Translations under genes and position numbers: made by a program
DNA from: Gemmatimonadota bacterium
GTDB taxonomy: Bacteria > Gemmatimonadota > Gemmatimonadetes > Gemmatimonadales > GWC2-71-9
DNA length: 37,002 bases
Direction of reading: 5' to 3'
NCBI GenBank assembly: GCA_041482775.1
Contig: JBGPEJ010000003.1
Coordinates: 1-37,002, forward strand
Notes under the pieces: generated by a model
The model's database searches: none
What the model was told of the DNA's origin: nothing
The model's input: only the letters and a program-made list of their open reading frames with translations
Shown here: piece after piece, positions 7,880 through 36,669 of the stretch
Layout: each line of letters starts with the position of its first letter
How positions within the stretch are numbered: position 1 is the first letter of the stretch

Positions 7880-7884
7880 CCGCG

Positions 7885-10299: not shown

Positions 10300-10303
10300 T
10301 GCC

Positions 10304-13862: not shown

Positions 13863-13877
13863 CCGCGCCTGATGCGT

Positions 13878-13917
13878 GGGCTCCCTGACTCCCTGGCTCC
13901 CTGGCTCCCTGACCTCC
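13878..13917 (-). repeat. Inverted octamer array, 4-5 x TGGCTCCC (reverse complement of the 13461-13508 unit)
   Basis: gggctccc-tgactccc-tggctccc-tggctccc-tgacctcc. Confidence 0.9.
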
Positions 13918-15285: not shown

Positions 15286-16595
15286 AGCTCGCTCACGATC
15301 GGAAGATCCTCCTCCTCGCCCTCCTGGCCGGCCTGCCCGCGCTCGGCGCGGCCACCGCGCTGCTCTGGCTGGTGCCGGCCTCCGGGCTCCTCCGCGCGAC
15401 GATCCTCGGAGCCCTGGTTCTGTTCTGGCTCATTGCCTCGCGGGCGGCGCAGCTCCGGGTCATTCGGCCGCTGCAAGTGATCGCGAACCTCCTCGCCGGC
15501 CTGCGCGAGGGTCACTTCACCCTCCGTGCGCGGGAAGAGGAGAGCGACGACGTGCTCGGCGCGGTGCGCCGCGAGGTGAACGCACTGCAGGAAACCCTCC
15601 GGGAGCAGCGGCTCGGCGCCCTCGAAGCCGACGCGCTGCTGCGCCGGGTGATGGAGGAAATCGACGTCGCGGTCTTCGCCTTCGACGCGGAACGCGCCTT
15701 GCGGCTGGCCAACCGCGCCGGCGAGCGGCTCCTCGGGCAACCCGTCGAGCGGCTGATCGGCAGGACGGCCGAGCAGCTCGGCATCGGCCAGTGCCTCGAG
15801 GGGGAAACCCCCCGGATCCTCGAAATGGTGGTCCCTGGGGCGGGGACCGGAAAATGGGAGGTGCGCCGCCGCCCCTTCCGGCAGGGCGGCCTCCCGCTCG
15901 ACATGGTCGTGCTCGCCGACATCAGCCGGGTGCTGCGCGCCGAGGAGCGGCAGGTCTGGCAGCGCCTGGTCCGGGTGCTCTCCCACGAAATCAACAACTC
16001 CCTCGCGCCGATCAATTCCCTGGCCGGCACGATGACCGGTCTCCTCGACCGCGCCCCGCGCCCTCCCGACTGGGAGGACGATCTCCGCAAGGGGCTCGAT
16101 GTCATCGGCGCGCGCTCGGACGCGCTCAACCGGTTCATGGCGTCGTACGCCCGGCTGGCCAAGCTCCCGCCGCCCACCCTCGAGCCCCTCGAGGTCGGGG
16201 AGTGGGTGCGCCGGGTGGTGCGCTTCGAGGAACGTCTCGCCGTTCGACTGATCGAGGGCCCCCCCCTGACCATCCGCGCCGACGGAGACCAGCTCGACCA
16301 GCTGCTCATCAACCTGCTGAAGAACGCCGCCGAGGCGGCCCAGGAAACCGGGGGCGGTGCCGAAGTCACCTGGTCCGCCGAGGAAAGCGCCCTCGTGGTG
16401 GAGGTGCGCGACGAAGGCCACGGTCTGACCACGTCGGCCAATCTCTTCGTGCCATTCTTCACCACCAAGCCGAACGGGACCGGCATCGGGCTGGTGTTCT
16501 CCCGGCAAGTGGCCGAGGCGCATGGCGGCGGCCTGACCCTCCACAACCGGACCGACCGTCGCGGCTGCGTGGCGCGGTTGCGGTTGCCCAGGTAG
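15282..16595 (+). CDS. Membrane sensor histidine kinase (HAMP/PAS-like, NtrY-like)
   Basis: Two TM helices, H-box LSHEINNSL, N-box INLLKNAAEA, DEGHG, FFTTK, GTGIGL. TTGA overlap with the regulator. Confidence 0.92.
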   Translation: MKLAHDRKILLLALLAGLPALGAATALLWLVPASGLLRATILGALVLFWLIASRAAQLRVIRPLQVIANLLAGLREGHFTLRAREEESDDVLGAVRREVNALQETLREQRLGALEADALLRRVMEEIDVAVFAFDAERALRLANRAGERLLGQPVERLIGRTAEQLGIGQCLEGETPRILEMVVPGAGTGKWEVRRRPFRQGGLPLDMVVLADISRVLRAEERQVWQRLVRVLSHEINNSLAPINSLAGTMTGLLDRAPRPPDWEDDLRKGLDVIGARSDALNRFMASYARLAKLPPPTLEPLEVGEWVRRVVRFEERLAVRLIEGPPLTIRADGDQLDQLLINLLKNAAEAAQETGGGAEVTWSAEESALVVEVRDEGHGLTTSANLFVPFFTTKPNGTGIGLVFSRQVAEAHGGGLTLHNRTDRRGCVARLRLPR

Positions 16596-18812: not shown

Positions 18813-19157
18813 ATGCCGAACCATTCCGTAAGCCTCCTGCAGGGTACCCTCGAGTTCCTCGTGCTCAAGACCCTGTCGTGGGGCCCGATGCACGGGTTCG
18901 CCGTCGGGCGCTGGATCCGCAAGACCACCGACGATGCCCTGGAAATTGAGGAGGGAGCGCTCTACCCGGCGCTGCACCGAATGGAGCGCCGGGGCTGGGT
19001 CGAGTCCGAGTGGGGGGTCACCGAGAACAATCGTCGGGCCAAGTACTACCAGATCACCCGATTGGGTCGCGACCAGCTCCGCCGCGAGGAGTCGAGCTGG
19101 ACTCGCTATGTCAGCGCCGTCTCCAAGATCATGACGGCGGCGCGCGCCTTGGCATGA
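18813..19157 (+). CDS. PadR-family transcriptional regulator (ADOP-associated type)
   Basis: LLQGTLEFLVLKTL, MHGF, EEGALYPALHRME, WGVTENNRRAKYY. Confidence 0.94.
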   Translation: MPNHSVSLLQGTLEFLVLKTLSWGPMHGFAVGRWIRKTTDDALEIEEGALYPALHRMERRGWVESEWGVTENNRRAKYYQITRLGRDQLRREESSWTRYVSAVSKIMTAARALA

Positions 19158-21826
19158 CCCCGGTTCCCGGGTTGCGCCGCTTGTTCCGGCTCGCCACCGG
19201 TCGCCCCGGTGATCCGCAAGAGATCGACGATGAGTTGGCGCTGCACCTCGACCTGCTGACGGAGGAGTTGGTCGAGGCCGGAATGAGCGGCGCCGCGGCT
19301 CGCGCCGAGGCGCTACGCCGCTTCGGTGATGTGCCGGCGATCCGCCGGTCGGTTCGGGTGGTCGACCGAGACAGGGAGCGAGCGATGTATCGTGCCGAGT
19401 GGTGGGACGCACTGGTGGGAGATGTACGCCACGCGTTGCGCGGTTTCCGGCGGAATCCCGGCTTTGCGCTCGGTACGGCGCTCACGCTCGGGCTCGGGAT
19501 CGGGCTCAACACCGCGATCTTTTCGGTATTCGACGGCGTGCTCCTCCGCCCGCTTCCCTACGCCGAGCCCGAGCGGCTGGTCCGCCTGTGGAGCAACAAG
19601 GTCGAGCGCGGCTTGCGTTTCTTCTCCGTTTCGGTTCCCGATTTTCAGGACTGGAGGGCTCGGAACCAGTCCTTTGGTGGAGTCGCCGCGTTCGAGCGGC
19701 AACAGGACTTGACGCTCGCCAGCGACGCCGGGCCGGAGCAGGTCCAGGGCGCGCGGGTCTCTGCCGAGATATTCACCCTGCTCGGTGCGGCCCCCGCACT
19801 CGGCCGCGTCTTTGGCGCCGCCGAGGATGTTCCCGGTGCGCCGGACCGGCCCGTCGTACTGAGCCAGTCGATCTGGCGCCGACTGGGGGCGGACCCGAAG
19901 CTGCTGGGCCGGACGCTCAATCTGAACGGCGAACCGTGGATCGTCATCGGCGTGATGCCCAAGGACTTCACCATCCCGGGCAATAGCGCTGAAGTGTGGA
20001 CTCCACTTGGACCCGGCGCCGTCAACTCCAATCGGGGCAATCGATACCTGCGGGTGCTGGCCCGCCTCAAGCCTGGAGTGACTCTCGAGGCGGCGCGGCA
20101 AGACATGACGACGCTCGCCCGGCGGATCGAAGCTCAAGACCCGGGCGACAACTCGGGGTGGTCGGTGACAGTCCTCGGGCTCACCGACGCTGTCGTGGGT
20201 GAAGACTTCCGCAAGGCGGTCACCATCCTGCTCGGCGCCGTCGGCATGGTGCTGCTGATCGCCTGCGGCAACGTCGCGACAATGGTGCTGGGTCGGAACA
20301 CCGCCCGAGCGCGAGAGCTCGCGGTACGCAGCGCGCTCGGCGCGGGCACCGCCCGGCTCGGTCGTCTGCTGCTCACCGAGGGGATTCTCCTGGGCGCGGT
20401 GGGCGGCGCGGTGGGCGTGGCGCTCGCCTTTGCGCTGGTGCGCCTACTGCATGTTCTGGAGCCGCCCAATCTGCCCCGGCTCGAGCAAGTCACCGTGAAT
20501 GGCGCCGTGCTCGCGGTGGCGGCACTGCTTTCGATCGGAAGCGGCCTGCTGTTCGGGTTGGTGCCGCTCCGCCGGGCGTCCCGCGCGTCGTTGACCGAGG
20601 CGCTCCGTGAGGGCGGCCGGGGCGTGTCGGGCGGACGGGCGCGGCAACGCACCCAGCGGATGCTGGTCGTCGCCGAGATGACGCTGGCGGTGCTGCTGCT
20701 CTCCGGCGCCGGCCTCCTGATCCGCAGCCTGGTCCGTCTGCAGCAGGTGGACCTCGGATTCAACGGTAGGAATGTTCTGGCCGTGAGTCTGGCCTTGCCG
20801 CCCGCGAAGTATGAAGGCGCCGAGCGCGTCGCCGGCTTCTACCACGGCCTGCTCGATCGGGTCCGCGTCCTCCCGGGCGTTCGCGCAGTGGCCGCCATCT
20901 CGGCGGCGCCGCTGCTCGGGCCGAATTCCGGAACGGTGTTCGTCGTCGATGGGCGTCCGGTGCCCGATCCCGCGGCGGTGCCCGATGCGGACTATCGTGC
21001 GGTCACCCCGGGGTATTTCAGGCTCCTGAACATCCCGCTGCTCTCCGGCCGTGATTTCACCGAGCAGGACGGTCCGGCCGGCCCGGGGGTTGTGGTGATC
21101 AGCTCCAGCACGGCGAGACGGTTCTGGCCCGGCGAAAACCCCATTGGGGCGCACCTTCGGATCGGCGATGTCGAGAAGGGACCGGTGACGGAGATCGTAG
21201 GCGTGGTCGGGGATGTGAGCCACCTTTCGATCGATGCGCCGGAGCGCCGTTTGATGCTTTACTTCCCGCTCCGCCGCACCGGCAATACCGCCATGACCGT
21301 GCTCTTGGCTGCCTCGGGCGATCCTGCCTGGCTGACAGCGCCATTCCGCCGGGAGGTGCTCGCAATGGATCCGAGTCTTCCGTTGAGCGCCGTCCGCACC
21401 ATGGATGAGATTGTGGAGGGCGCATTCTCTCAGCGGCGCTTCAACGTCGTCGTACTGGGCCTCTTTGCGCTCGCGGCCTTGGTCTTGGCGGGGATCGGGC
21501 TCTTCGGCGTGATGGCCTACGCAGTGAGCCAGCGCACCCACGAGCTCGGGGTGCGGCTGGCCCTGGGCGCTCAGCGGGCACGCGTCCTCCGGATGGTGCT
21601 GGGCGAATCGCTGCGCCTGGCGATCGTGGGCGTCGGGCTCGGTGTAGCTGGCGCGCTGTTGCTCAATCGAACCCTGGCCACGCTGCTCTTCGACATCAAG
21701 CCCAACGACCCCATCACGCTCCTCGCCGCCAGCGCCGTCCTGGTCGGGATCGCGCTGCTGGGAAGCTTCGTGCCGGCGCGCCGCGCCGCCCGAGTGGACC
21801 CGATGACCACCCTGCGCGAGGAGTAG
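19154..21826 (+). CDS. ADOP-family ABC permease with N-terminal permease-prefix domain
   Basis: ATGA overlap with PadR. Prefix EIDDELALHL…EALRRFGD, duplicated MacB/FtsX halves, VDPMTTLREE. Confidence 0.93.
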   Translation: MTPVPGLRRLFRLATGRPGDPQEIDDELALHLDLLTEELVEAGMSGAAARAEALRRFGDVPAIRRSVRVVDRDRERAMYRAEWWDALVGDVRHALRGFRRNPGFALGTALTLGLGIGLNTAIFSVFDGVLLRPLPYAEPERLVRLWSNKVERGLRFFSVSVPDFQDWRARNQSFGGVAAFERQQDLTLASDAGPEQVQGARVSAEIFTLLGAAPALGRVFGAAEDVPGAPDRPVVLSQSIWRRLGADPKLLGRTLNLNGEPWIVIGVMPKDFTIPGNSAEVWTPLGPGAVNSNRGNRYLRVLARLKPGVTLEAARQDMTTLARRIEAQDPGDNSGWSVTVLGLTDAVVGEDFRKAVTILLGAVGMVLLIACGNVATMVLGRNTARARELAVRSALGAGTARLGRLLLTEGILLGAVGGAVGVALAFALVRLLHVLEPPNLPRLEQVTVNGAVLAVAALLSIGSGLLFGLVPLRRASRASLTEALREGGRGVSGGRARQRTQRMLVVAEMTLAVLLLSGAGLLIRSLVRLQQVDLGFNGRNVLAVSLALPPAKYEGAERVAGFYHGLLDRVRVLPGVRAVAAISAAPLLGPNSGTVFVVDGRPVPDPAAVPDADYRAVTPGYFRLLNIPLLSGRDFTEQDGPAGPGVVVISSSTARRFWPGENPIGAHLRIGDVEKGPVTEIVGVVGDVSHLSIDAPERRLMLYFPLRRTGNTAMTVLLAASGDPAWLTAPFRREVLAMDPSLPLSAVRTMDEIVEGAFSQRRFNVVVLGLFALAALVLAGIGLFGVMAYAVSQRTHELGVRLALGAQRARVLRMVLGESLRLAIVGVGLGVAGALLLNRTLATLLFDIKPNDPITLLAASAVLVGIALLGSFVPARRAARVDPMTTLREE

Positions 21827-25106: not shown

Positions 25107-27239
25107 ATGGCCACTCGCCCTGCCCCGACATCCAAGGTCCGGCCCAGCGCCCGCCTCGAGAAGGGGGATCTTCTCGAGATGTACCGGCTGATGGTGCTCT
25201 CCCGGCGTCTGGACGACAAGGAAATCCAGCTCAAGCGTCAGAATAAGACCTTCTTCCAGATTTCCGGCGCGGGCCACGAGGCGGTCCTGGTGGCCGCCGC
25301 GAAGGTCTTTCGTCCCGCGTACGACTGGTTCTACACCTACTATCGGGATCGCGCCCTCTGCCTCGGCCTCGGCATGACCGCCACCGAGCAACTCCTCTCC
25401 GCCGTGGGCGCCGCCGACGATCCCAACTCGGGCGGCCGCCAGATGCCGTCCCATTGGGGCCACAAAGACCTCAACATCGTCTCCGCCTCGAGCCCCACCG
25501 GGACCCAGTTTCTCCAGGCCGTGGGCGCCGCCGAGGCGTGGCTCCGCTACTCCCAGAACGCCGAAATCGCCGATCGCGACGAGCGCATCAGGGGCGACGA
25601 GGTCGTGTTCGTTTCCGCCGGCGACGGCACCACCAGCGAAGGAGAATTCTGGGAGTCGCTCAGCACCGCGTGCAATCTGAAGCTGCCGGTGGTCTATCTC
25701 ATCGAGGACAACGGCTACGCGATCTCGGTCCCGGTTGAGGTCAACACTCCCGGCGGCTCGATCTCGAAGTTGGTGACCGGCTTCCCCGGGCTGCTGATCC
25801 AGGAGGTGGACGGCTGCGATGCCCTCGCCTCCTATGACGTACTGAGCCGGGCGGTGGACTACGCCCGGGCGCGAAAAGGACCCGCGCTGGTGCACGCCAA
25901 GGTCATTCGGCCGTACAGCCATTCGTTCTCCGACGACGAGATCCACTACCGTCCCCCCACCGAGCGGGACGCCGATGCCGCACGCGATCCGGTGACCCGG
26001 TTCCCCAGGTACCTGCTCGAGCAGGGCGTTGCGACCGAAGCCGAGCTCGAGCGGATTCGAGTCCAGGTGGAAGAGGAGATCCAGATCGCCGCGGACACCG
26101 CGCTGGCGTCGCCACAACCGGCCGCCGCCACGATCTACGACTTCGTCTACTCACCCGATGTGGACCCAACTTCTGAGCAGTTCGACACCGAGGACGACCC
26201 GAGATTCACCGGGGAGCCCACCACGATGGTGGACCTGCTCAACTCCTGCATGAAAGACGAAATGGTGCGGGACCCCCGGATCATCGTCTTCGGGGAAGAC
26301 GTCGCCGACGTAACCCGCGAGGACTACCTCGGCCAGGTGAAGGGGAAGGGTGGGGTGTTCAAGGTGACGTGGGGCCTGCAGAAGCTCTTCGGCGGCCACC
26401 GGGTGTACAACTCGCCACTCGCCGAGGCCAACATTGTAGGACGGGCCATCGGGCTCGCCACCCGCGGACTCAAGCCGGTGGTCGAGATTCAGTTCTTCGA
26501 CTACATCTGGCCCGCCTACATGCAGCTCCGGGATGAGCTCGCGCTCCTCCGCTGGCGCTCCAACAACTCCTTCGCCGCCCCGCTCGTCGTCCGGGTCACC
26601 TACGGGGGCTACCTCAAGGGTGGCGCCCCGTACCATTCCCAGACCGGCGCCGCGGTGTTTACCGGACTGCCGGGACTCCGCGTGGTCTGTCCCGCTACCG
26701 CGCTCGACGCCAACGGTCTCCTTCGCACTGCCATCCGCTGCGAGGACCCGGTGCTCTTCCTCGAGCACAAGCACCTCTACCGCCAGACCTATAACAAGGC
26801 CCCGAACCCCGGCCCCAATTTCATGATTCCTCTGGGGAAGGCCAAGGTGGTCCGCGACGGCACCGATCTGACCGTCGTTACCTATGGGGCGGTGGTGCAG
26901 CGGACGCTGGTGGCCGCGAAGGAGCTGGAGGAGCGGACCGGCGCGAGCGCGGAGGTGATCGATCTCCGCTCGCTCTCACCGGTGGATTGGGAGGCGATCT
27001 ACGCCTCGGTGAGGAAGACCAGCCGGGTCATCGTGGCCTACGAGGATTCGCTGTCGTGGGGCTACGGGGCCGAGATTGCGGCGCGGATCGCCGATGAGGC
27101 GTTCAGCTGGCTCGACGCCCCGGTGCGCCGCGTGGCCTCGGCCGACACCTTCGTGGCCTACGCGCCCGAGCTCGAGGACGTGATCCTGCCGCAGAGCGAG
27201 GGGATCGCGAAGGCGATGGAGGAGCTGCTCCGCTTCTAA
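25107..27239 (+). CDS. 2-oxoacid dehydrogenase E1, fused alpha+beta subunits (branched-chain type likely)
   Basis: SGAGHEA, GRQMPSH, TPP motif GDGTTSEG…DNGY, beta-subunit [26 protein letters not shown]. Confidence 0.92.
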
Positions 27240-28636
27240 TCTGCCGCGGGCATTTCGAAGACGAACACCGCTCCGCCCTCCGCGTCTCCCGGGGCCTCGT
27301 GGCGGACCGCGCCGCCGTGCCGCTCCGCGATCCACCGGGCGATCGCGAGCCCGAGACCACTCCCCGGCGCCGGGGTGTCACCCCGGGCGAACCGCCGGAA
27401 GATCCGCTCCCTCGCTTCGGGAGCCACCCCCGGACCCCAGTCCCGAACTCGCACCCAGGCCCGGCCGTTCCCCGGGCCGTCCGGGTGAACCCCGGCGCTG
27501 ACCGCGATCGGCGAGGGCGCCGCGTGGAGCAGCGCGTTCTCCAGCAGCCCGACCAGGGCGCGCTCGACCAGTTGTCGGTTACCCGAAACCGGAGCCGCTT
27601 CGAACTCCTCGAGCCGGATGGCACGTCCCTGGGCCACCGGCAGACGGCGTACCCGGACCAGGGCCTTCGACGCCGCGTCATCGAGAAAGAACCGTTCGGC
27701 CATGGCGCCCCGTTCGCCCGCCTGGCCGCGCGCCAGGAGCAGCAGGTCGGCCACGACCGATCCCATACGCTCCGCTTCGCTGGCGATGAGCTGAAGCGCG
27801 TCGGTGTCGCGGGCCGGATCCCGAGGAGCCGCCAGCGCCGCATCGGCTTCGCTCAGGACGATGGCGATCGGAGTGCGCAGCTCGTGGGCGGCGTCCGCCA
27901 GAAACGAGCGCTCGCGGCGGAGCGCCTCGCTCAGACGGGCCAGCAGCCGGTTGAACTCGGTGGTGAGCTCGCCCACTTCATCGGGCACCGTACTTCCCGG
28001 CAGCGGCGGAAAATCGATCTCTCCGGCCTCCATCAGCTGGCCGGTGCGCTTGGCGGCCTCGGCGATCTGCCCGACCGGGCTCAGCGCGGGCCGCGCCGCG
28101 AGCACCCCGACCCCGGCGCTCGCGACCAGCAGGAGCGGAAGGCCGAGAAACAGCACCAGCTGGAGCGCGCGGCGCTGCCGCTGGATCGGCGCGAGCGAAA
28201 TCCCCACCAGCAGGTGGACGCCTTCCGGGAGCTCCCCGCTCTGGACTCGCGCCAGCCCCGACTGGGTTTGTACCGTGAGGGGGAGCTCGATCCTCCTGGC
28301 GCCCAAGCCGTCCAGCTCCGGCGCCCCGGAGTAGCGCCGGGTCTGTGCCAGGATCCGGCCGTCGGAACTGAAGGCCATCATCGCCCGATCGGCGTAGATC
28401 AGCTCGGTCATCACGTGGGCGGTGGTGGCCGCCATGCTGGGGAATTCCGGCCGGTCCAGCAAGTAGAGCTCCCGCGCCGCCTCGATGGTCCCGCCGAGGG
28501 TGCGGTCCACGTCGGCCCGGTAGCTCCGCTCGACGATCACCACCAGCAGGATCCCGCCGGCGGCGAGCAGCGCGCCGAACCAGACCAGGTACACCGCCGC
28601 GAGCCGGAATCGGAGGCCGCGGAGCGGGTATCTCAA
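27236..28636 (-). CDS. Sensor histidine kinase (OmpR-partner, HAMP)
   Basis: Two TM helices, [39 protein letters not shown] overlap with the regulator. Confidence 0.92.
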
Positions 28637-29316
28637 GCGACCTCGCGACGCACGCCGAGGGAGTAGCCCGCCCCGCGGATGGTGTGGATCAGCGACGCCC
28701 GCCCCGGGCCGTCGATCTTCTTCCGCAGCCGGGCAATGTAGACGTCGATGACGTTGGAGAAGGCGTCGTAGCTCTCGTCCCAGACGTGCGCGCTGATCTG
28801 GCTCCGCCCGCAGACCTCTCCCGGATGGCGGGCGAGGTATTCGAGCAGCGCATATTCGGTGGTGGTGAGTTCCACCCGCCGGCCGGCCCGTTCCGCGGTC
28901 CGTGCCCCGGTATCGATCGAGAGATCAAGGACCGTGATGGTCTCCGGCCGGAGCTCGGGGGTGCGCCGCGCCAGCGCCCGGAGCCGGGCCAGCAGCTCCT
29001 CCAGCGCGAAGGGCTTGACCAGGTAGTCGTCGGCGCCGTGATCGAGCCCCCGGACCCGGTCTTCCACTGCGTCCCGTGCCGTGAGCATGAGGATCGGAAC
29101 CCGCTGGCCCGCGGTGCGGAGCTCCCGGGCCAGGTCGAATCCGGAGCCGTCCGGGAGCATGACGTCGAGCACCACCGCGTCGTATGACCCCTGCGCCAGC
29201 TTGGCACGCGCCATCACGAGCGTATCCGCAAGATCCACCGCATGCGCCGCCTGCCGCAGCCCCTTCGCGACCGACGCTGCAAGGCGCCCCTCATCCTCCA
29301 CCACCAACACCCGCAT
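28633..29316 (-). CDS. OmpR/CusR-family response regulator
   Basis: MRVLVVEDE, LDVMLP, MLTARD, GADDYLVKPF, winged helix NVIDVYIARLRKK…TIRGAGY. Confidence 0.95.
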   Translation of the reverse strand: MRVLVVEDEGRLAASVAKGLRQAAHAVDLADTLVMARAKLAQGSYDAVVLDVMLPDGSGFDLARELRTAGQRVPILMLTARDAVEDRVRGLDHGADDYLVKPFALEELLARLRALARRTPELRPETITVLDLSIDTGARTAERAGRRVELTTTEYALLEYLARHPGEVCGRSQISAHVWDESYDAFSNVIDVYIARLRKKIDGPGRASLIHTIRGAGYSLGVRREVA

Positions 29317-29386
29317 TCGATCGCTCCCCCCGGGAAACCACTCAAGTTTGCCCGGCGAGGGAGAGCCGGTCAACGGCCCCGGGCCC

Positions 29387-29413
29387 TTCACCTTTCTTTC
29401 ATGACTCCTGCAT
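29387..29413 (-). promoter_or_regulatory. Candidate OmpR-type tandem binding boxes
   Basis: TTCAC (29387), TTCAT (29398), TGCAT (29409): three direct repeats at an exact 11-bp period, upstream of the response regulator. Confidence 0.5.
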
Positions 29414-29436: not shown

Positions 29437-32166
29437 TCAGTTGTTGGGCGCCCCCGCCTGGATCCAGGCCTTCACTTTGTTGATGAACGTGGTGCCCAGC
29501 GAGCCCGACGGCGGCATCAGCGAAATCGTCGTGCCCTGGAGTGCACCGAGGAGACGGCCGGTGTTGGGATTTCCTGGAGTCACGTACACCGTCGTCGCCG
29601 TCACCAAGTTCGTATACGCCGCACTCAAGGTGTTGAGCGCGGGCCGCTGCTGTCCCGGCACATGACACCCGCTGGAGAGGCAGTTCGCCTGGAAGATCGG
29701 ATAGATGTCGGTGGCAAATGATACCCCCCCGGAAGCCGGCGACACCGTAAAGGTGACCGAGACGTTTTTCGGTGAGTTCGTGGCGCCGGCGGCGCTGACT
29801 GGAATCATCGCGGTGTAGGTACCGGCTACGATGCTTCCCAGCGTCGGGGTGACCGTAAGGGTGGCCGGCGCGGCCGTGGTGTTGAGCGATGCCGCGGCCC
29901 ATCCGGTGGCGCCGGCTCCGTAGGTCAGCGTTCCCACGGTGAGGCCGGTGAGCGACCCGCCCCCGGCATTGGTCACCGCCACCGTCCTCGCTGCGGGGGA
30001 AGTGCCGCCTGCAGTGGCCGCGAACGTGAGCGTGGCGGGAGAGAGGCCGATTGCCGGGGCCGGCGCGGCGCTGACCGTGAATGTGACCGATACGTTCTGC
30101 GGAGAGTTCGCTGCGCCCGCTGCGCTGACGGCGATCGTGGCGGTATAGGTCCCCGCGGCCAGGCTGCCGAGGCTCGGCGTGACCGTGAGGGTGCTCGGGG
30201 CGGTGGTGACGCTCAGCGAGGCAGCGCACCATCCACTCGCGCCCGCCCCGTAGGAGATCACCCCGACCGTGAGGCCGCTGAGCGTTCCCCCGCCGACATT
30301 GCTGACGCTCGCGGTCTTCGCCGCCGGGGACGCGCCCCCGGCGGTTGCCGAGAAGCTCAGACTGCTCGGTGCGAGGGCGATCGCCGAGGGTGTACCCGCC
30401 GCGCTCACTGTAAAGGTGACCGCGAGGTTCTGTGGGCTGTTGCCCACCCCGGCGGCGCTGACCGGAACCGTCGCGGTGTAGGTACCCGCCGCCAGGCCGG
30501 TCACACTCGGAGTGAGGGTGAGGTTGGCCGGCGCCGTGGAGCCCCCCAGCGCGGCCCCCAGCCAGCCGGCGGCCCCGGCGCCATAACTCACCGGTCCCGC
30601 GGTAAGGCCGGAGAGGGTCCCTCCTCCGGAGTTGGAGACGGTCACCACCTGCGCTGCCGGGGCGCTTCCCCCCGCGGTGGCCGAAAAGAGGGCGCTGCCG
30701 GTCGAGAGGGCGATCGTCGGCGGCAATGCTCCGGCGCTTACCGCGAGCGTGACCGCAATCGATTGTGGACCATTGCTCGCGTCCGGGGAGCTGACCGGGA
30801 GAGTGGCGTTGTAGTTCCCCGCGGCGAGCCCCACGGTCGCGACCGTGAGCGTAAGCGTGGCCGGTGCCGCGGTGGAGGTGAGCGAAGCCTGCAGCCATCC
30901 GCTGGCACCCGCACCATAGATGATCGGTCCGGTGGAGAGACTGCCCAGCGTGCCCCCGCCGGTATTGGATATCGCGATCGTCTTGGCCGCGGGTGGAGCG
31001 GCGCCCGCCTGTCCCGCGAACGCGGCGCTGGTCGGTGAGAGGGCCAGTACGGCGGGGGTTGCCCCTGGGGCCACTACCAGTGTGATCGTCACGCTCTGAG
31101 GACTCGCCGCCGCCCCCGCCGCGCTCACCGGTACCGAGGCGGAGTAGCTCCCCGGGAGCAGGCCGGAGAGTGTCGGCGCGAGGGTCAGCATCGCCGGCGC
31201 GGTGGTCGTGGAGAGCGCCGCCGTGAGCCAGCCGGTGGCGCCCGCCCCGTAGGAAACCTGGCCGACCGCCAGCCCGGTCAAGCTGCCGCCACCTCCGTTG
31301 GTGATGGCAATCGACTGCGCCGCGGGAGGGCTGGCGGCCGAGCCCGAGAAGGAGACCGCCGTGGTCGAGAGCCGGAGTGCAGCCGCCTCCGCTGCCTGCG
31401 TAATGGTCAGCGCCACCCGAACGGTGCGCGGGCTGTTGATGGCGCCCGGGGCCGCGATCGCGACGACCGCGATGTAGGTTCCCAGGGCGAGCCCCGATGG
31501 GTTCGGTGTCAGGGTCAGGTTGGCCGGAGCGGTGGTGCGGTCAAGCGTAGCGGTGAGCCAGCCGCTCGCGCTCGGGTCGTAGGTCACGTCGGTGATCGCG
31601 AGACCGTTGAGCGGCGCGTCGCCTGCCGCGAGGATCTGCACCACCTGGGCAGGGGACGTGCCGCCCGCCACCGCGGAGAACGCCGCGGCCGTCGCCGTCA
31701 TGCCGATGATCGGGCCGACTGCCACCGGATCCACCCGCAGCGTCACCGCCACACTGCGCGGGCTGTTGGTCGCTCCGGTTGCCGAGAGCTTGACCGCCGC
31801 GTAATAGGTCCCTGGGGCAAGGTTCCCCGCCGCCGCCTGAAGCGCCAGCGTGACCGGCGCGGTGGTGCCGGCGAGCGACGCGGTGAGCCAGCCAGAGCTG
31901 TCGTCCAGGTAGTGCACCGAGTCGATCCCCAGGCCGCCAAGGGATCCCGGCCCCGCGTTGCTGATCGCGATCGTCTGCATGGGCGCCAGGGCATGGACCA
32001 GGGCGGCGAAATCGGCGGAAGCGGTCGAGAGGGCAATGACCGGGGGGCCGGCCGGCTCCGGCTCGAGGCCGGCGGTGATCGTCTTCTGATCGCAGGAGCC
32101 GAGCAGCAGGCTCAGGGCGATGACCAGGCCGCCCGCGAACACGCGGGAAATTGCACGACGTCCCAT
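29437..32166 (-). CDS. Lipoprotein with seven ~110-aa Ig/BACON-like repeats and a C-terminal c-type cytochrome domain (CX4CH)
   Basis: Lipobox LLGS-C25. Repeat consensus IALS…F…NxGGGxLxGL…YGAGAxGW…APATLTxT…GTYxA…NSP. C-terminus VSFATDIYPIFQANCLSSGCH…MPP…WIQAGA resembles the planctomycete-type cytochrome c domain. Confidence 0.85.
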   Translation of the reverse strand: MGRRAISRVFAGGLVIALSLLLGSCDQKTITAGLEPEPAGPPVIALSTASADFAALVHALAPMQTIAISNAGPGSLGGLGIDSVHYLDDSSGWLTASLAGTTAPVTLALQAAAGNLAPGTYYAAVKLSATGATNSPRSVAVTLRVDPVAVGPIIGMTATAAAFSAVAGGTSPAQVVQILAAGDAPLNGLAITDVTYDPSASGWLTATLDRTTAPANLTLTPNPSGLALGTYIAVVAIAAPGAINSPRTVRVALTITQAAEAAALRLSTTAVSFSGSAASPPAAQSIAITNGGGGSLTGLAVGQVSYGAGATGWLTAALSTTTAPAMLTLAPTLSGLLPGSYSASVPVSAAGAAASPQSVTITLVVAPGATPAVLALSPTSAAFAGQAGAAPPAAKTIAISNTGGGTLGSLSTGPIIYGAGASGWLQASLTSTAAPATLTLTVATVGLAAGNYNATLPVSSPDASNGPQSIAVTLAVSAGALPPTIALSTGSALFSATAGGSAPAAQVVTVSNSGGGTLSGLTAGPVSYGAGAAGWLGAALGGSTAPANLTLTPSVTGLAAGTYTATVPVSAAGVGNSPQNLAVTFTVSAAGTPSAIALAPSSLSFSATAGGASPAAKTASVSNVGGGTLSGLTVGVISYGAGASGWCAASLSVTTAPSTLTVTPSLGSLAAGTYTATIAVSAAGAANSPQNVSVTFTVSAAPAPAIGLSPATLTFAATAGGTSPAARTVAVTNAGGGSLTGLTVGTLTYGAGATGWAAASLNTTAAPATLTVTPTLGSIVAGTYTAMIPVSAAGATNSPKNVSVTFTVSPASGGVSFATDIYPIFQANCLSSGCHVPGQQRPALNTLSAAYTNLVTATTVYVTPGNPNTGRLLGALQGTTISLMPPSGSLGTTFINKVKAWIQAGAPNN

Positions 32167-32179
32167 GGTACCCCCTGGA

Positions 32180-32995
32180 TCAGTCGTCGACGTTGGGATT
32201 TCCCGGTACGGCGCTGCCGCGAATCCGGAGCGTGCCCGCAGCGGGATCGAGGGTGGTGGTCAACAGGGTGAGGCCGGTCTGGGCGGGGCCCTGCAGGAGC
32301 GTACCGTCCGCGGCAAACTGCGCCCCATGCGCCGGACAGTGCCATCGATTCCCGGTGGGGTCGATGATCGCCTGCTGGTGGGGGCAGGCTAGGCCGTACG
32401 CGGTATAAGCCGACGCTCCGGTGCGGGCCACGCCGATCGGTATCGTGGTGTTCCCATCGACCCGCGCCAACCCACCGACCGCCGCCAGCGCGGGGAAGCT
32501 GGCCAGCTTGATGGTGAGATCGACATTGCCGCCGCCTCCCGACACCACCAGCGTCCCGGCCGCCGCATCGAAGGTGGTCTGTAGCCTGGTGAGTCCGCTG
32601 GTGCGCTGCCCGCCGGTCCACGTCCCCGCGCTGTCCCAGGTCGCGCCATGGTTGGGGCAGCGGAAACCGGCCCCCGCCGGGGCAACCGTGGTTCCGGCAT
32701 GCGGGCAGACCAGCGAGAACACCGCATAGGTCGCGGCGTCCACCCGGACCGCCGCCATCGGGACCGGGGCCCCTCCGATGACCGCCATGCCGCCGACCGA
32801 ACCCAAGACCGGATAGTCGGCGAGTTTGATCGTGAACGCGTCGAGCCCGGCGGTGGTGCCGCTCGGCCCGGTTCCGAAATCAATGCGCCCTCCGCACGCC
32901 GAAGCGAGCAGCGCGCTGACCGCGGCGAGTGTCGAGCTCTGCAGGAAATCCCGGCGGGTGACGCCGCTATCGCACCCCGATTGGCAGTCGCACAT
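32180..32995 (-). CDS. Tat-exported lipoprotein with two tandem Rieske [2Fe-2S] domains
   Basis: TRRDFL Tat motif, LASA-C34 lipobox, CPH-x13-CPNH and CPH-x13-CPAH, and an internal duplication (TIKLADYP / TIKLASFP). Confidence 0.88.
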   Translation of the reverse strand: MCDCQSGCDSGVTRRDFLQSSTLAAVSALLASACGGRIDFGTGPSGTTAGLDAFTIKLADYPVLGSVGGMAVIGGAPVPMAAVRVDAATYAVFSLVCPHAGTTVAPAGAGFRCPNHGATWDSAGTWTGGQRTSGLTRLQTTFDAAAGTLVVSGGGGNVDLTIKLASFPALAAVGGLARVDGNTTIPIGVARTGASAYTAYGLACPHQQAIIDPTGNRWHCPAHGAQFAADGTLLQGPAQTGLTLLTTTLDPAAGTLRIRGSAVPGNPNVDD

Positions 32996-33016
32996 GATGC
33001 ACCTCTTCCGAGCAGA

Positions 33017-33529
33017 TCAGAGCTTGACAGAGGCGGCGGCCCAGGCGGCCGGGTCCTTGTCGCTCTCGAATACCTTGTCCACGTCCACGAACAGGAGCTT
33101 TCCGTCGGTCCGGATCGGCAGCCGGTCCATATTCCGGGTCGCTCGGCCGGTGATGAAGGTCCCGTCGGGCTGGTATCGGGACTTGTGTTTGGGACACTGA
33201 AAGGTCGATTCCTCGTCCAGCCACTTGAGCGCGGTGTTCTGGTGCGGGCAGGAGAGCGCGAAGGCATACGCCGCGCCCTTGAATCGCACTACGATGACCT
33301 GGTTGTCCTTGTCGATCGTGGCGCCGTCGGTGGCGGGGATCGGATAGCTCATCTCGGCGCTGTTCGCGACCCGGAGTCCGGTGGCGTGCCGGATGGCCAT
33401 CGCGGCCGCCTTGGACGGCGAGAGCCCGAGCCCCACCAGAAGGCCGGCGGCGATCCCGGCGGCCTCCCGGAGAAACTCACGGCGGTCCGCGTGCTGGCCG
33501 CATCCGGTGCAGGGAGAATCGGGTGTCAC
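33017..33529 (-). CDS. Tat-exported single Rieske [2Fe-2S] protein
   Basis: GTG 33529 with GAGGAG RBS, DRREFL Tat motif, CPH-x15-CPKH. This is the C-terminal part of the 33017-34306 ORF. Confidence 0.88.
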   Translation of the reverse strand: MTPDSPCTGCGQHADRREFLREAAGIAAGLLVGLGLSPSKAAAMAIRHATGLRVANSAEMSYPIPATDGATIDKDNQVIVVRFKGAAYAFALSCPHQNTALKWLDEESTFQCPKHKSRYQPDGTFITGRATRNMDRLPIRTDGKLLFVDVDKVFESDKDPAAWAAASVKL

Positions 33530-33555
33530 GCGATTCGACTCCTCGGTGGAAATGT

Positions 33556-34203
33556 TCACTTGAAAAACAGCATCATCCCCCAGCTGGTGATCGACACGCC
33601 CATCGAGGCGAGCGCGATGTTCCGGTGCTGGATCCGCTTTTGCTGGGAGGTCCTCGCGTCCCGCGCGAGGGTGATCCCGGAATAGGCGAACCCCGCGTCG
33701 GCGGCCATGAACAGCAGGGAATGGATGTATCGCTTGGCCCGCCCCGCCGGGTCTTTCCGGGCGTCCCAGAGATTCCAGAGCCCGGTGATCGTGTTCGCAG
33801 TGAACACCACCGCGGTGGCCGTGGCCAGCGGCCGGTGCCAGTTGATTGCCCACTTGGGCGCGTCGGTCGAGTACTTGAGAACCTGATCCCCGGTGATGTA
33901 GCTCCCCACGAACAGCGGGATCATTGTGAAGCTGAGCCACCGGTGGAGGGTGAGGCGCGCGTGATAGAACCCGCTGTACTCCACCGCCTTGGTGCGTCTC
34001 CGGGTGCGCGCCGTGTCCTCGCGGCCGGCCGCACCCGACTCGGCGATCTCCCGCCAGTTGAGTCCGCCGCTCCCCACCAGCGGAGCCGCCGGGCTGGTAT
34101 ACCCGCTCGAGGGCATCGAGTCCGCGCCGGAAGCCGGGTCGGCGCTCGGCGCGGCGGCGAGGGACGGAATCAATTGGGCGATCAGGGTGAGGGCGGTTTG
34201 CAT
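33556..34203 (-). CDS. Four-helix membrane protein with four His, putative di-heme cytochrome b (b561-like)
   Basis: Four hydrophobic segments, each preceded by His: LHRW, WHRP, IHSL, QHRN. All four are conserved in the paralogue at 35065-35712. Confidence 0.65.
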   Translation of the reverse strand: MQTALTLIAQLIPSLAAAPSADPASGADSMPSSGYTSPAAPLVGSGGLNWREIAESGAAGREDTARTRRRTKAVEYSGFYHARLTLHRWLSFTMIPLFVGSYITGDQVLKYSTDAPKWAINWHRPLATATAVVFTANTITGLWNLWDARKDPAGRAKRYIHSLLFMAADAGFAYSGITLARDARTSQQKRIQHRNIALASMGVSITSWGMMLFFK

Positions 34204-34218
34204 CGGCGGCTGCCCCCG

Positions 34219-34716
34219 TCAGATCGCAAGGAGGGCGGTGCCGAGGAGCACCGAGCCGAACCAGAGTCCAAGGCTCGCCCAGGCCGTCTGTTTGAGTCGC
34301 CGCCAACCCGCCCCGGGCTCCCCGGTGCCCCGCCGCAGGGCCGTCTCGGCCCGCTGCAGCATCGCCCCGTTGGCGAGCAGGAGCGCGACGACTCCCATTT
34401 TGACCCAGAAGAGCGGCGCCGGAAGGAACGTTTTTAGGTCAGCGGCCAGCAGGAGAAAACCGCTCAGAAAGGTCAGCGTCAGGCCCGCCAGCACCGGCCG
34501 GTGGATCGCGTGGAGCTCGGCGAGGTGCGCCCGCTGCGTTGATGGATCGCCCGGCGCCCGGCGCAGAGTCATCCGGTCCGCCGCGATGGCGAAACCGCCG
34601 CCCAGCAGGAGACCGCCCAGGTGGGTGAAGGTGACTGCAGTGGAAACCAGCTTGGAATCCGCATATAGCCGGGCCCAGGGCGCCGCGAGCTGGGTGGCTA
34701 GGGAGACGACGGACAT
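34219..34716 (-). CDS. 4-TM membrane protein (DUF2214/DUF6644/CopD-like)
   Basis: THLGG…D in TM1, His before TM2, SGFLL, FWVKM motif, C-terminal SLGLW. Confidence 0.7.
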   Translation of the reverse strand: MSVVSLATQLAAPWARLYADSKLVSTAVTFTHLGGLLLGGGFAIAADRMTLRRAPGDPSTQRAHLAELHAIHRPVLAGLTLTFLSGFLLLAADLKTFLPAPLFWVKMGVVALLLANGAMLQRAETALRRGTGEPGAGWRRLKQTAWASLGLWFGSVLLGTALLAI

Positions 34717-34781
34717 TGAATTCTGCCTCAGCGTTGGCGCGGCGCGAGGGCCGCGATCCGGAGGGGTGGACTCGTTGAGTC

Positions 34782-34797
34782 AGCACGAGAGGTGCCA
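34782..34797 (-). promoter_or_regulatory. Sigma54 (-24/-12) promoter of the redox operon
   Basis: Minus strand TGGCAC-CTCTC-GTGCT with exact GG-N10-GC spacing, about 65 nt upstream of ATG 34716. Confidence 0.7.
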
Positions 34798-34947
34798 CTC
34801 GGAGTCACAATGCGCGTTGTTGCAGTAGAGCTGGACCACCTCGGGGGCTGGCGCCTCATGATTTGGCTCCAGCTACCGCTATCGTCATCTCTCTGGGACG
34901 CGAGAGGTTGCATGGGCTTGCACACCCGGGCACAACGTGAATGACGG

Positions 34948-35036
34948 GTTCATGAACTCTAGCGTGAAGCGCGGGGCAAGTTCGCGCTGCCCGTCCGTCG
35001 TATTCCGACCGGCTTCGCAGATTTCCGTTCATGAAC
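34948..35036. promoter_or_regulatory. Pair of identical palindromes GTTCATGAAC (candidate activator sites)
   Basis: GTTCATGAAC at 34948-34957 and 35027-35036, 150-240 bp upstream of the sigma54 site. Confidence 0.5.
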
Positions 35037-35064
35037 CGAGCCTCCACCGCGACCGGCGTGGCCC

Positions 35065-35712
35065 TCAATGGGTCAATAGCATCACGCTCCACCCCACGAT
35101 CGACAGGCTCATCGAGGCGAGGGCCACCGTCCGGTGGAAGTGATTTGGATCAGTCCTGGCCTTGGCGTCCTTGGCGAGCGTGATGCCCGCGTACGTAAAT
35201 CCGGCATCCGCCGCCATGAAGAGGATCGAATGCAGGTAGCGCCGCACCCGCCCCGCGGGATTGCGCTGGCTCGCCCGGAGATTCCAGATCCCCGTGATGG
35301 TGTTGGTCGCAAACACTGCACCGGTGGCGATGGCGAAGGGGGGGTGCAGACTCTTCGCCCATCGCGGCGGAGCATACGGCTCGTTGAGGAGCTTTTCTCC
35401 GGTCACGTACGACCCGATGAACAGAGGAATCATCGTGAAGCTGAGCCAGCGGTGGATCTTCAGCCGACCTCGATAGGCGCTCCCGTAGTCGAAGGCCTTG
35501 GCGCGGGCCGGTCGGCGGGTCGTGTCGGGCACTTCCACCGGAGACGCCGTCCGCTCCCGGAGCGCGGCCCAGTCGATGCCGCCGGGCCCGACCAGGGCAC
35601 CCCCCGCGGTCCGGACGATCGCCGGCGCCGTTCCCGCAGAATCGGGAAGGGGAGCGGCCGGGCTGGCGAGGGCCGGGAGGAGCTGAACGAGAATGGTCAA
35701 CGCGGTGCTCAT
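35065..35712 (-). CDS. Paralogue of the four-His putative cytochrome b membrane protein
   Basis: IHRWLSFTMIPLF, LHPP, LHSILFMAADAGF, FHRT; closely matches 33556-34203. ATG at 35712. Confidence 0.7.
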   Translation of the reverse strand: MSTALTILVQLLPALASPAAPLPDSAGTAPAIVRTAGGALVGPGGIDWAALRERTASPVEVPDTTRRPARAKAFDYGSAYRGRLKIHRWLSFTMIPLFIGSYVTGEKLLNEPYAPPRWAKSLHPPFAIATGAVFATNTITGIWNLRASQRNPAGRVRRYLHSILFMAADAGFTYAGITLAKDAKARTDPNHFHRTVALASMSLSIVGWSVMLLTH

Positions 35713-35726
35713 CGCATCGGCTGAAG

Positions 35727-35742
35727 AGCAGGACAGGTGCCA
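35727..35742 (-). promoter_or_regulatory. Sigma54 (-24/-12) promoter
   Basis: Minus strand TGGCAC-CTGTC-CTGCT, 14/16 identical to the site at 34782-34797, 14 nt upstream of ATG 35712. Confidence 0.7.
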
Positions 35743-35833: not shown

Positions 35834-36669
35834 TCAGCCGCGCTTCCGGCAGAGCATCAGCTCGGTGCTCGGACTCTCCCGCAGCCGCCTCACCAGGGCT
35901 CGCTCCAGCGGGAACAACGCCGCCCCGAGCAGCCATCCCAGGGGCTCGCCCAGAGTGGCCGGCGCCACCATCGCGGTCCACGCCCAGCGGGCCAGCCGGG
36001 ACGTGGAGTCGGCGGGGTAGTTCATCAGCACGAACATGGGCACCCTCCCGACCACCTCGAACCCGGCGGCCTCCACCAGGCGGATGCTTTCGCTGAGGGG
36101 CCGGCTGGCCTGGTGCGCGACCCGCTCCACCGGATGGCGAAGGAAATTGTCCGACCAGAAGAACCACCCCCCCGGTCGGAGCAGCCCCACGATGTTGTGG
36201 AACGCGCGGGCGTACTGCGCGTCGTCCACGATGTGAAAGAGGACGTCGAATGCGGAGGCGGCGTCGAAGGAGGCTCGGGCGAGGGGGGCGCCGGTCATCT
36301 CCCCGCCGATGTCGGCACGAACGAAGCGCGCCGCCGGGAACCCGCGGGTAAGCTCGGCCACCGCGACGTCGGTGAGATCGAGGCCGGTAACCCGGGCGCC
36401 CAGCCGGAGCCAGCGCTCCACGTAGAGCCGGTCCCCGCGCCCACGTCGAGGACCTCCGCGCCGGCCCAGCTGTTGGCCGTCGAGAAATCACCGGTGGCCC
36501 GGTCAATTCCCGCCACCGCGCGATCGAACACCTCTCCCCGGACCCGGTACATCCACTCGTTGAATCGCCGGCCCAGGCGCAGAAAGCCGACCCCCGCGAG
36601 GGAATAGTGTTCGCGGAGCCTGGATTCCCAGTATTGACGGTTGTCGAACGGAGGGTGCGGAGCCGTCAC
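35834..36669 (-). CDS. Class I SAM-dependent methyltransferase, frameshifted at about 36426
   Basis: ORF 36295-36669 carries VLDVGAGTG and ORF 35834-36421 carries GLDLT, ADIG, FDVLFH, LRPGG. Adding one T restores GTGFYVERW. GTGA overlap with the upstream gene. Confidence 0.85.

Follow-up and report, generated by a model that had tools for sequence, protein, structure and literature searches.

The Rieske proteins of the quinol-oxidising cytochrome bc1 and b6f complexes typically carry an extra pair of cysteines, and in Escherichia coli the MsrPQ (YedYZ) proteins, found together with the regulators HprRS, represent a system in which a four-histidine heme b membrane protein feeds a redox protein exported through twin-arginine translocation (Tat). 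In Bacillus subtilis, the CopD domain of YcnJ, with its conserved and functionally essential histidine, is functionally linked with the DUF420 protein CtaM in the import and export of copper for heme-copper oxidases (PMC13344008). Features reminiscent of these systems occur together on a contig (JBGPEJ010000003.1) of the Gemmatimonadota bacterium assembly GCA_041482775.1, a 3.1-Mb metagenome-assembled genome that is 81% complete, and the whole 37-kb (37,002-nt) stretch analysed here is referred to as the window. Its minus strand encodes two four-histidine membrane proteins (His4_A and His4_B), a four-helix membrane protein (TM4), a Rieske [2Fe-2S] protein (Rieske1), a lipoprotein with two Rieske domains (di-Rieske), a large repeat lipoprotein and a two-component pair (Table 1). 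We interpret the region as an operon under predicted sigma54 control whose centre is a four-gene module confined to a single order of the phylum, and the cluster probably serves in electron transfer, or in copper handling, at the cell envelope. Taken individually, the parts are members of known superfamilies or have features of them (Rieske, CopD-like, choice-of-anchor D and cytochrome-c-like), and the cluster would be of the kind in which a heme protein of the membrane is joined with redox partners that Tat exports to the periplasm. No named system corresponding to the gene combination was found in Pfam, NCBIfam or the literature searched, neither as a family model nor in a paper, in agreement with an original prediction made on the window alone.

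When compared with the bc1 and b6f complexes, the cluster shares Tat-exported Rieske proteins of the same broad type and small multi-helix membrane subunits with four conserved histidines, whose split into 4 + 4 helices recalls cytochrome b6 and subunit IV. The module contains, however, no homologue of cytochrome b (PF00033/PF13631), carries a single histidine on each helix where cytochrome b has them pairwise on two helices, has a second Rieske protein where a c-type cytochrome would be, and in the window the disulfide cysteines (CTHxGC...CxCH) are absent from all three Rieske domains. The likeness to MsrPQ/HprRS extends to an adjoining pair of the CopRS/CusRS family, HprR being among the matches of the regulator (NF008567, E = 1.1e-54), but the periplasmic partners are Rieske proteins instead of a molybdoenzyme, a CopD-like subunit is added, His4 matches neither the ferric-reductase nor the b561 families and the sensor pair occurs in few loci only. 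Elsewhere in the same genome (L143 on contig C29, positions 741-2166, minus strand), a gene for a YedY/MsrP-like Tat molybdoenzyme overlaps by 8 nt with a true Ni_hydr_CYTB (b561-type) gene; this pair is MsrPQ-like and shows the recognised form of a heme b protein with a Tat partner in this organism. As in the YcnJ/CtaM system, CopD and DUF420 affinities are seen in TM4 and His4, respectively, but these matches are weak and below cut-off, the module has no CopC, YcnI, Sco or CtaK-like gene, and Rieske proteins are not known to be part of the Bacillus system (PMC13344008). AioB/AroB is the best solved-structure relative of Rieske1 and is likewise Tat-exported, whereas the score of Rieske1 against TIGR02694, its best NCBIfam match, lies far below the cut-off (E = 3.1e-07, 30.3 bits versus 95.65) and no AioA molybdopterin subunit is encoded in the window or in related loci. 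The C-terminal domain of the repeat lipoprotein, finally, resembles PSCyt1 domains and class I cytochromes c in its language-model neighbours and in a conserved Cys...Cys-His with a downstream Met-Pro, but its motif is CX4CH where these proteins have CXXCH, and no Pfam model was passed.

A four-gene core module in one order of Gemmatimonadota

The conserved unit consists of His4, TM4, a Rieske protein and a second Rieske protein, and is smaller than first proposed. A scan of one genome per species across 185,579 species yielded 224 relatives, and the loci of the best 80 of these 224, all from other species, were analysed. TM4 lies beside His4 in 73 of the 80 loci, at least one Rieske gene is present in 74 and two in 63, while all four genes are found in 61, contig ends cutting nine of the 80. 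With H, T, R1 and R2 standing for His4, TM4 and the first and second Rieske genes, the order is H-T-R1-R2 in 42 loci, H-R2-T-R1 in nine, T-H-R1-R2 in five and H-T-R2-R1 in two, in addition to duplicated forms, and the flanking genes (peptidase, kinase, dNK-like and others) vary and are mutually unrelated. Retention of the set through such rearrangement is strong evidence for joint function, and the four complete gene orders argue for selection on co-location rather than inherited synteny. The genes had been proposed to form a functional unit, a view that a gene order conserved nowhere else would have contradicted; the 61 four-gene loci clearly bear it out. Seventy-seven of the best 80 records are titled Gemmatimonadota, -etes, -ales, -aceae or Gemmatimonas, one Longimicrobium and two simply 'bacterium'. 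A set of 20 loci overlaps with the set of 80 (L035 = L078, L036 = L080, L038 = L084 and L046 = L104, for example), and the two sets are thus not independent.

For the membrane proteins, the distribution was also determined in a further 200 genomes taken from across the phylum. Of these, 57 encode His4 (35 of 96 in family f1, 20 of 38 in f2, two of three in f3 and none of 63 in f4 to f12) and 58 encode TM4, and all His4-positive genomes fall within one order of Gemmatimonadota. Both proteins occur in 54 of the 61 genomes with either (His4 only in three, TM4 only in four), a count which overstates the statistical support in that related genomes are not independent. His4 also occurs alone in four loci (L042, L044, L068 and L121). 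A third paralogue of the window's own genome stands on contig C10 (10892-11374; L003 1498-2253, minus strand), with 43% identity over residues 66-215 and without TM4 or Rieske genes, and adjoins genes for thiamine diphosphate (ThDP)-enzyme-like proteins.

The membrane proteins His4 and TM4

His4_A and His4_B are paralogues (51% identity, E = 6.9e-64), neither of which matched any Pfam or NCBIfam family. All 100 relatives listed by a large protein search are devoid of Pfam domains and, wherever the source supplies a name, it reads 'hypothetical protein'; two source organisms are named among them, both Gemmatimonadales bacteria. In a profile search of 1.84 billion representatives, E <= 0.001 was reached by 793 cluster representatives and E <= 1e-30 by 387; for the relatives of His4, the Atlas also hinted at an Acidobacteriota cluster. 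As judged by these searches, His4 is a new protein family for which neither Pfam nor NCBIfam has a model. An alignment of 23 diverse members, including His4_A, shows a variable N-terminal region of 70 residues, in contrast with 20 invariant positions in the last 140 residues. The conserved core (residues 78-213) includes an NTxTGxWNL motif, and H87, H123, H161 and H193 are invariant in 23/23 sequences, with an arginine directly after three of these four histidines in the window's His4. In the AlphaFold2 model of His4_B the core forms four long helices (78-114, 117-148, 155-182 and 187-213; predicted local distance difference test (pLDDT) >90), each beginning with one of the invariant histidines, so that two histidines would lie at each membrane face. 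The mean number of lysines and arginines is 10.6 in the segment before helix 1 and the loop between helices 2 and 3 versus 6.5 in the other two loops, and these loop charges indicate that H87 and H161 lie on the cytoplasmic face and H123 and H193 on the periplasmic face. This geometry, known from two-heme transmembrane cytochromes b, suggests that His4 may bind heme b.

Weak Pfam matches of the 23 members are distributed over DUF4079 (17/23), DUF420 (11/23) and Ni_hydr_CYTB (8/23), all below cut-off. The Ni_hydr_CYTB (PF01292) match amounts to 13 bits versus a cut-off of 30.1. That to DUF420 reaches 18.1 bits versus 30.5, which leaves His4 outside the family, and covers two helices only in a non-collinear manner (residues 76-143 on profile positions 68-125 of 130). 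A search of the window's own genome for DUF4079, and of five genomes of the group for a canonical DUF420 gene, found neither. Foldseek searches of the PDB with the His4 model gave nothing at E <= 0.001, designed helical bundles ranking at the top, and in the VIA wide fold search designed bundles (Z 15.2) preceded cytochrome b6 (Z 11.0) and b561 (Z 9.9). The only match of a PDB profile search, to the di-heme protein 4D2 (E = 0.00054) and based on a short loop-His-Arg motif, was rejected, 4D2 being a designed protein and the match therefore without evolutionary meaning. A complex prediction for His4 (residues 70-215) with TM4 and two hemes, run without controls, scored 0.00 and 0.00 against a mark of 0.32, which speaks neither for nor against binding.

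TM4 of the window matches DUF2214 (E = 0.0063) and UPF0093 (E = 0.097) below cut-off. Among 12 TM4 members, DUF2214 is matched by ten (best E = 5.8e-05) and CopD, UPF0093 (HemJ) and DUF6644 by five each, again all below cut-off, the DUF2214 match being collinear from the start of the profile and below its cut-off of 34.1. The orthologues share 25 invariant positions, including H32 (in helix 1), D47, R48, H72 and D93, as well as W104, K106, M107, N116 and G117. The AlphaFold2 model (pLDDT 91.8) comprises an amphipathic N-terminal helix and four membrane helices, and fold searches with it were unspecific. Loop charges indicate that the N-terminus is outside and that H32, D93 and M107 face the periplasm. 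TM4 may be regarded as a putative remote CopD/DUF2214/HemJ-like member with sub-threshold matches.

The Rieske proteins

Both Rieske proteins of the window match PF00355 above its cut-off of 20.3 (Rieske1, E = 7.8e-09 and 35.8 bits; di-Rieske, E = 8e-15 and 55 bits, in two stretches), and the cluster ligands are complete in Rieske1 (CPH...CPKH) and in both domains of the di-Rieske (CPH...CPNH and CPH...CPAH). Each carries a twin-arginine motif before a hydrophobic stretch, as expected of a Tat substrate (DRREFL in Rieske1, TRRDFL in the di-Rieske). The di-Rieske scores 17.9 bits against TIGR01409, over the cut-off of 16.7, and Rieske1 falls just under it with 15.7 bits. Downstream of TRRDFL the di-Rieske has a lipobox (LLASAC), Rieske1 has a cleavage-like site (AAA-M), and a TatC gene is present in the genome. 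Twin arginines also occur in 125 of the 128 Rieske open reading frames (ORFs) of related loci. The nearest solved relatives of both proteins are AioB/AroB and the b6f/bc1 Rieske proteins, not oxygenases (for Rieske1, AroB/AioB at E = 7.7e-09 over residues 15-151, and b6f-type Rieske proteins), so an assignment to the electron-transfer type rather than to oxygenase components is supported. The second Rieske protein is single-domain in most relatives and two-domain in L063, L066, L067 and L093. A pattern scan detected the bc-type CTHxGC...CxCH pattern in 20 of the 128 Rieske ORFs, and a CTHxGC...CxCHG motif is seen in the second Rieske protein of some Gemmatimonadaceae (L046_8 in L046, L047_10 in L047, and L051).

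A further cysteine pair (C-x1-4-C) lies a few residues before the twin arginines, in the n-region of the Tat signals, as CTGC in Rieske1 (33480-33529) and as MCDCQSGC in the di-Rieske (32950-32995). It recurs in 110 of the 125 Rieske ORFs with twin arginines in related loci (L033-L052 and L062-L141). As both Rieske signals look cleavable, this pair would act before or during export. We know of no description of a cysteine pair in the n-region of a Tat signal, and it may bear on the quality control of iron-sulfur protein export.

The repeat lipoprotein and the two-component pair

The signal of the 909-residue lipoprotein ends in LLLGSC, followed by an aspartate. Residues 39-796 are occupied by seven tandem repeats of ~95 residues with a choice-of-anchor D/Ig-like match (NF012200, E = 4.3e-12), and the C-terminal domain of ~97 residues (DNA positions 29440-29730) contains CLSSGCH, a CX4CH motif, with MPP further on. 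Both CX4CH and MPP are kept in the three lipoprotein orthologues (L063, L066 and L067), the language-model neighbours of the domain include PSCyt1/Cytochrome_CBB3 (0.91-0.93) and PSCyt1/cytochrome c clusters (0.93-0.96), and the genome has genes for cytochrome c assembly. CX4CH motifs are able to bind heme c, and the domain may be envisaged as a candidate heme c carrier. A search for PSCyt1 gave no match in 31 related genomes, but as it gave none in any control genome either, this result is uninformative. The lipoprotein is encoded in only three of the 80 related loci, and hence represents a sub-clade add-on to a smaller and widespread core; among 25 other genomes of the same genus it is found in three, while His4 is found in 12. 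The two-domain form of the Rieske protein and the second copy of His4 accompany it.

The best family of the adjacent response regulator is the heavy-metal CopR/CusR/SilR type (TIGR01387, E = 2.6e-67, 226.6 bits versus a cut-off of 279.2), and that of the kinase is the heavy-metal sensor kinase (TIGR01386, E = 1.4e-52, 179.2 bits versus 292.55, residues 8-449). The same types adjoin the module elsewhere only in L066 (downstream) and L135 (divergent, upstream); the OmpR-type regulator and histidine kinase are clade-specific. The original prediction of an electron conduit ending in a stalked cytochrome c holds, in the light of these distributions, only in part: its conserved unit and its electron-transfer-type Rieske proteins are retained, whereas the stalked end, found in three of 80 loci and passing no cytochrome c model, does not belong to the conserved system, and neither does the clade-specific two-component pair.

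Promoter motifs and regulation

The two near-identical sigma54 promoters described for the locus were recovered as motifs upstream of His4_A (P1) and TM4 (P2), and loci of another clade likewise have such motifs upstream of the module. TGGCAC-N5-NTGCT has exactly two matches in the window, where 0.03 are expected from shuffled sequences and none of 100 shuffles gave two. P1 also occurs in the orthologous locus L062, where P2 is kept as TGGCACCCCTCATGCT. In 17 of 73 related loci, the region upstream of the first module gene contains a match to TGGCAC-N5-TTGCT at nine or more of 11 positions (background 0.021 per 360 nt, from 89 matches in 1.52 Mb), and TGGCAC-N5-TTGCC is located at about -49 in ten loci of another clade. 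P1 ends so close to the start codon of His4_A that its transcript would be nearly leaderless; an out-of-frame ATG-CGA-TGA precedes this start. The genome encodes rpoN and has eight matches to the enhancer-binding protein family PF00158, one of which is in the window (13876-15285). This match belongs to a plus-strand pair (13876-16595) of an NtrC/ZraR-type sigma54 activator with a receiver domain and a PAS histidine kinase, 18 kb from the cluster and beside MacB-type ABC transporter genes. No strong sigma54 motif was seen upstream of the module in Gemmatimonadaceae loci. In 18 of these an NtrC-type activator gene is found two to three genes upstream of the module, which may be mere synteny.

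The spacer between His4_A and TM4 (348 nt) contains two copies of the perfect palindrome GTTCATGAAC, ~150 and ~230 nt upstream of P2, and no further copy exists in the 3.1-Mb assembly. In L062, the closest orthologous locus, both sites retain the core TTCAYGAA, and the palindrome at <=1 mismatch was not found upstream of the module in more distant loci. The pair represents candidate binding sites for a sigma54 activator or for the adjacent OmpR-type regulator. A promoter and terminator scan revealed no sigma70-like site, and three terminator-like sites versus 3.0 expected.

Function of the module and alternative explanations

On the observed gene content, sequence motifs, conservation, co-occurrence and promoter motifs, the core module is read as a self-contained membrane-to-periplasm one-electron relay, with a probability of roughly 45%. 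His4 would hold two bis-histidine b hemes and move electrons across the inner membrane, while TM4, its obligate membrane partner, would contribute a quinol or metal site or act as a docking subunit, its invariant histidine, aspartate, lysine and methionine being placed near the periplasmic face. The two Tat-exported Rieske proteins would receive the electrons and deliver them to an acceptor in the periplasm that is encoded outside the module. In the sub-clade of the window this set is extended by duplication of His4, by conversion of the second Rieske protein into the di-Rieske and by addition of the seven-repeat lipoprotein with its cytochrome-c-like CX4CH...M domain, adjoining the CopRS-like pair. 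The hemes of His4 and of the CX4CH domain, physical contact among the proteins, the flow direction and the substrate are all inferred.

Several observations weigh against such a relay. His4 passed none of the heme b family models, all of its Pfam matches being below cut-off, and alignment of its profile by hhalign with the true Ni_hydr_CYTB protein of its own genome gave a probability of 0.2%. The fold resemblance to cytochromes b6 and b561 was discounted, as the scores are within the range for any helical bundle, and the invariant histidines are located at helix starts, at the membrane boundary and not deep in the bilayer. The weak affinities of TM4 are with the CopD copper-transport superfamily and HemJ and not with quinol sites. 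At the lipoprotein end, the motif is CX4CH, not CXXCH, and no cytochrome c model was passed, the best Pfam match being Cytochrome_CBB3 (E = 0.078, 13.8 bits versus a cut-off of 27). No terminal enzyme or acceptor is conserved beside the module in related loci, and canonical cytochrome b genes are found elsewhere in the genome (contigs C106 and C258), as they are in four of the five genomes checked, so that the module would be accessory.

The main rival, a module handling copper or another metal, which the original prediction had left out of account, is somewhat unlikely. TM4 would then be a CopD-type permease, His4 a CtaM/DUF420-like copper protein or exporter or a transmembrane reductase, and the Rieske proteins would shift Cu(II)/Cu(I) for uptake, cuproenzyme delivery or detoxification, with a CopRS-like switch in the clade of the window. 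Such roles would accord with the DUF2214, CopD and UPF0093 matches of the TM4 members, with the periplasmic orientation of the invariant H32, D93 and M107, with the DUF420 matches of 11 of the 23 His4 members and with the CopR/CusR- and CopS/CusS-type regulator and kinase, and the linkage of YcnJ and CtaM provides a precedent (PMC13344008). All of these family matches are, however, below curated cut-offs, the DUF420 match being restricted to two helices out of register with the profile, the module lacks a conserved gene for CopC, Sco, a multicopper oxidase or a P-type ATPase, and the CopRS-like pair adjoins it in few loci only (the window, L066 and L135). We know of no copper system with Rieske proteins. 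The relay and copper readings can in principle merge, conjecturally, if a transmembrane reductase feeds Rieske proteins by which Cu(II) is reduced before TM4 takes it up.

It is unlikely, though a degree less so than the specific mechanism that follows, that the set is a new type of respiratory or periplasmic redox complex, a functional Rieske/cytochrome b analogue assembled from non-homologous parts, with a new di-heme four-helix protein, a subunit of the CopD superfamily and a Rieske protein instead of cytochrome c1, to which the sub-clade adds the di-Rieske and a ~30-nm stalked CX4CH heme lipoprotein that could carry electrons across the periplasm. In its explicit, Q-cycle-like form, which appears quite improbable, His4 and TM4 would build a quinol-oxidising site at the periplasmic face, from which one electron would pass via Rieske1 to the second Rieske protein, in the place of cytochrome c1/f, and the other would cross the membrane through the hemes of His4. 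The obligatory four-gene set with its 4 + 4 helices and bc/AioB-type Rieske protein, the histidine pair on each face of His4 and the disulfide motif in the second Rieske protein of some relatives are compatible with this scheme, but neither sequences nor profiles connect the set with cytochrome b, the single histidine on each helix of His4 departs from the pairwise arrangement of cytochrome b, Rieske1 of the window has no disulfide cysteines and its cleavable-looking signal (AAA-M) makes a membrane anchor doubtful, and canonical cytochrome b coexists in most of the genomes checked. That the module supplies electrons to clade II nitrous oxide reductase (NosZ) in Gemmatimonadota is very improbable. 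Rieske/cytochrome b genes are known from some atypical nos clusters, NosZ is found in 27 of 35 His4-positive versus 26 of 61 His4-negative genomes of family f1, and in genome G095 (C11:170960-178091) His4 (at 176986) and TM4 (at 177621) lie ~4 kb downstream of a clade II nosZ. The trend is reversed in family f2 (8/20 His4-positive versus 10/18 His4-negative), related genomes do not count as independent samples, the window's own genome, 81% complete, yielded no nosZ, and the module is not beside nosZ in the other four genomes of the genus of G095, nor in the other His4-positive genomes compared (G125, G165 and G146). Least credible of all is that the genes are mere neighbours without joint function: His4 sometimes stands by itself (in four loci and on contig C10), but in 61 of 80 loci the four genes have stayed together although their order takes four forms and the flanks are unrelated, the membrane proteins co-occur genome-wide in 54 of 61 genomes, and in the window the genes are separated by 13-26 nt behind one promoter motif.

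Layout of the locus and neighbouring genes

All elements that had been described for the locus, namely five co-directional genes with short gaps, a His4 paralogue upstream and an OmpR-type regulator and histidine kinase downstream, were found on the minus strand (Table 1). The gaps calculated from the coordinates are 15, 26, 21 and 13 nt from TM4 through His4_B, Rieske1 and the di-Rieske to the lipoprotein, the value of 26 nt resting on a GTG start of Rieske1 at 33529 with GAGGAG 9 nt upstream.

Table 1. Genes and sequence motifs of the redox cluster, in the 5' to 3' order of the minus strand
Feature	Position	Strand	Remarks
Class I methyltransferase	35834-36421	minus	first in the 5' to 3' reading of the minus strand, before His4_A
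P1, sigma54-type motif TGGCAC-N5-CTGCT	35727-35742	minus	15 nt upstream of the His4_A start codon
His4_A, four-His membrane protein	35065-35712	minus	215 aa from the ATG at 35712
Palindrome GTTCATGAAC, 10 bp, two copies	34948-34957, 35027-35036		His4_A-TM4 spacer, 79 bp apart
P2, sigma54-type motif TGGCAC-N5-GTGCT	34782-34797	minus	66 nt upstream of the TM4 gene
TM4, four-helix membrane protein	34219-34716	minus	165 aa
His4_B, four-His membrane protein	33556-34203	minus	215 aa
Rieske1, Rieske [2Fe-2S] protein	33017-33529	minus	Tat signal
di-Rieske, lipoprotein	32180-32995	minus	Tat signal, two complete Rieske domains
Repeat lipoprotein	29437-32166	minus	909 aa, repeats and C-terminal CX4CH domain
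OmpR-family response regulator	28633-29391	minus	
Sensor histidine kinase	27236-28636	minus	HAMP, HisKA and HATPase; 4-nt overlap with the regulator gene

The remainder of the window contains unrelated genes, including those for fatty-acid oxidation enzymes, peptidases and an E1 dehydrogenase, as well as three large MacB/FtsX-type permease genes (833, 803 and 938 aa) accompanied by genes for an ABC ATPase and an HlyD-like adaptor (7798-12715 and 19010-21826). No oxygenase, molybdopterin or cytochrome b gene, including that of bc1, is found in the window, as had been noted previously. Several neighbours of the module were considered as possible parts of it and rejected as lineage synteny, comprising peptidase M20/M28-like, dNK-like, Ser/Thr kinase, PaaX and enoyl-CoA hydratase genes, as well as those for 3-keto-disaccharide hydrolase, LytTR and an NtrC-type activator with a sigma70-family factor. 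The stretch is partly present in 22 sequencing runs labelled as sediment or freshwater-sediment metagenomes and presumed to be DNA, none being listed as RNA.

Significance

Gemmatimonadota are abundant in soils and sediments, few have been cultured and the bioenergetics of their envelope has barely been studied. The module occurs in roughly 40% of the sampled genomes of one order of this phylum, and sets two periplasmic Rieske proteins in surroundings that lack a cytochrome b, an oxygenase and a molybdoenzyme. It represents a small, testable four-gene unit, whose carriers include a complete genome of cultured size (G067, with His4-TM4-Rieske). If it handles copper, it would to our knowledge be the first copper system to make use of Rieske centres. 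If the relay reading is correct, the module would constitute a new way of wiring the quinone pool or the cytoplasm to periplasmic acceptors.

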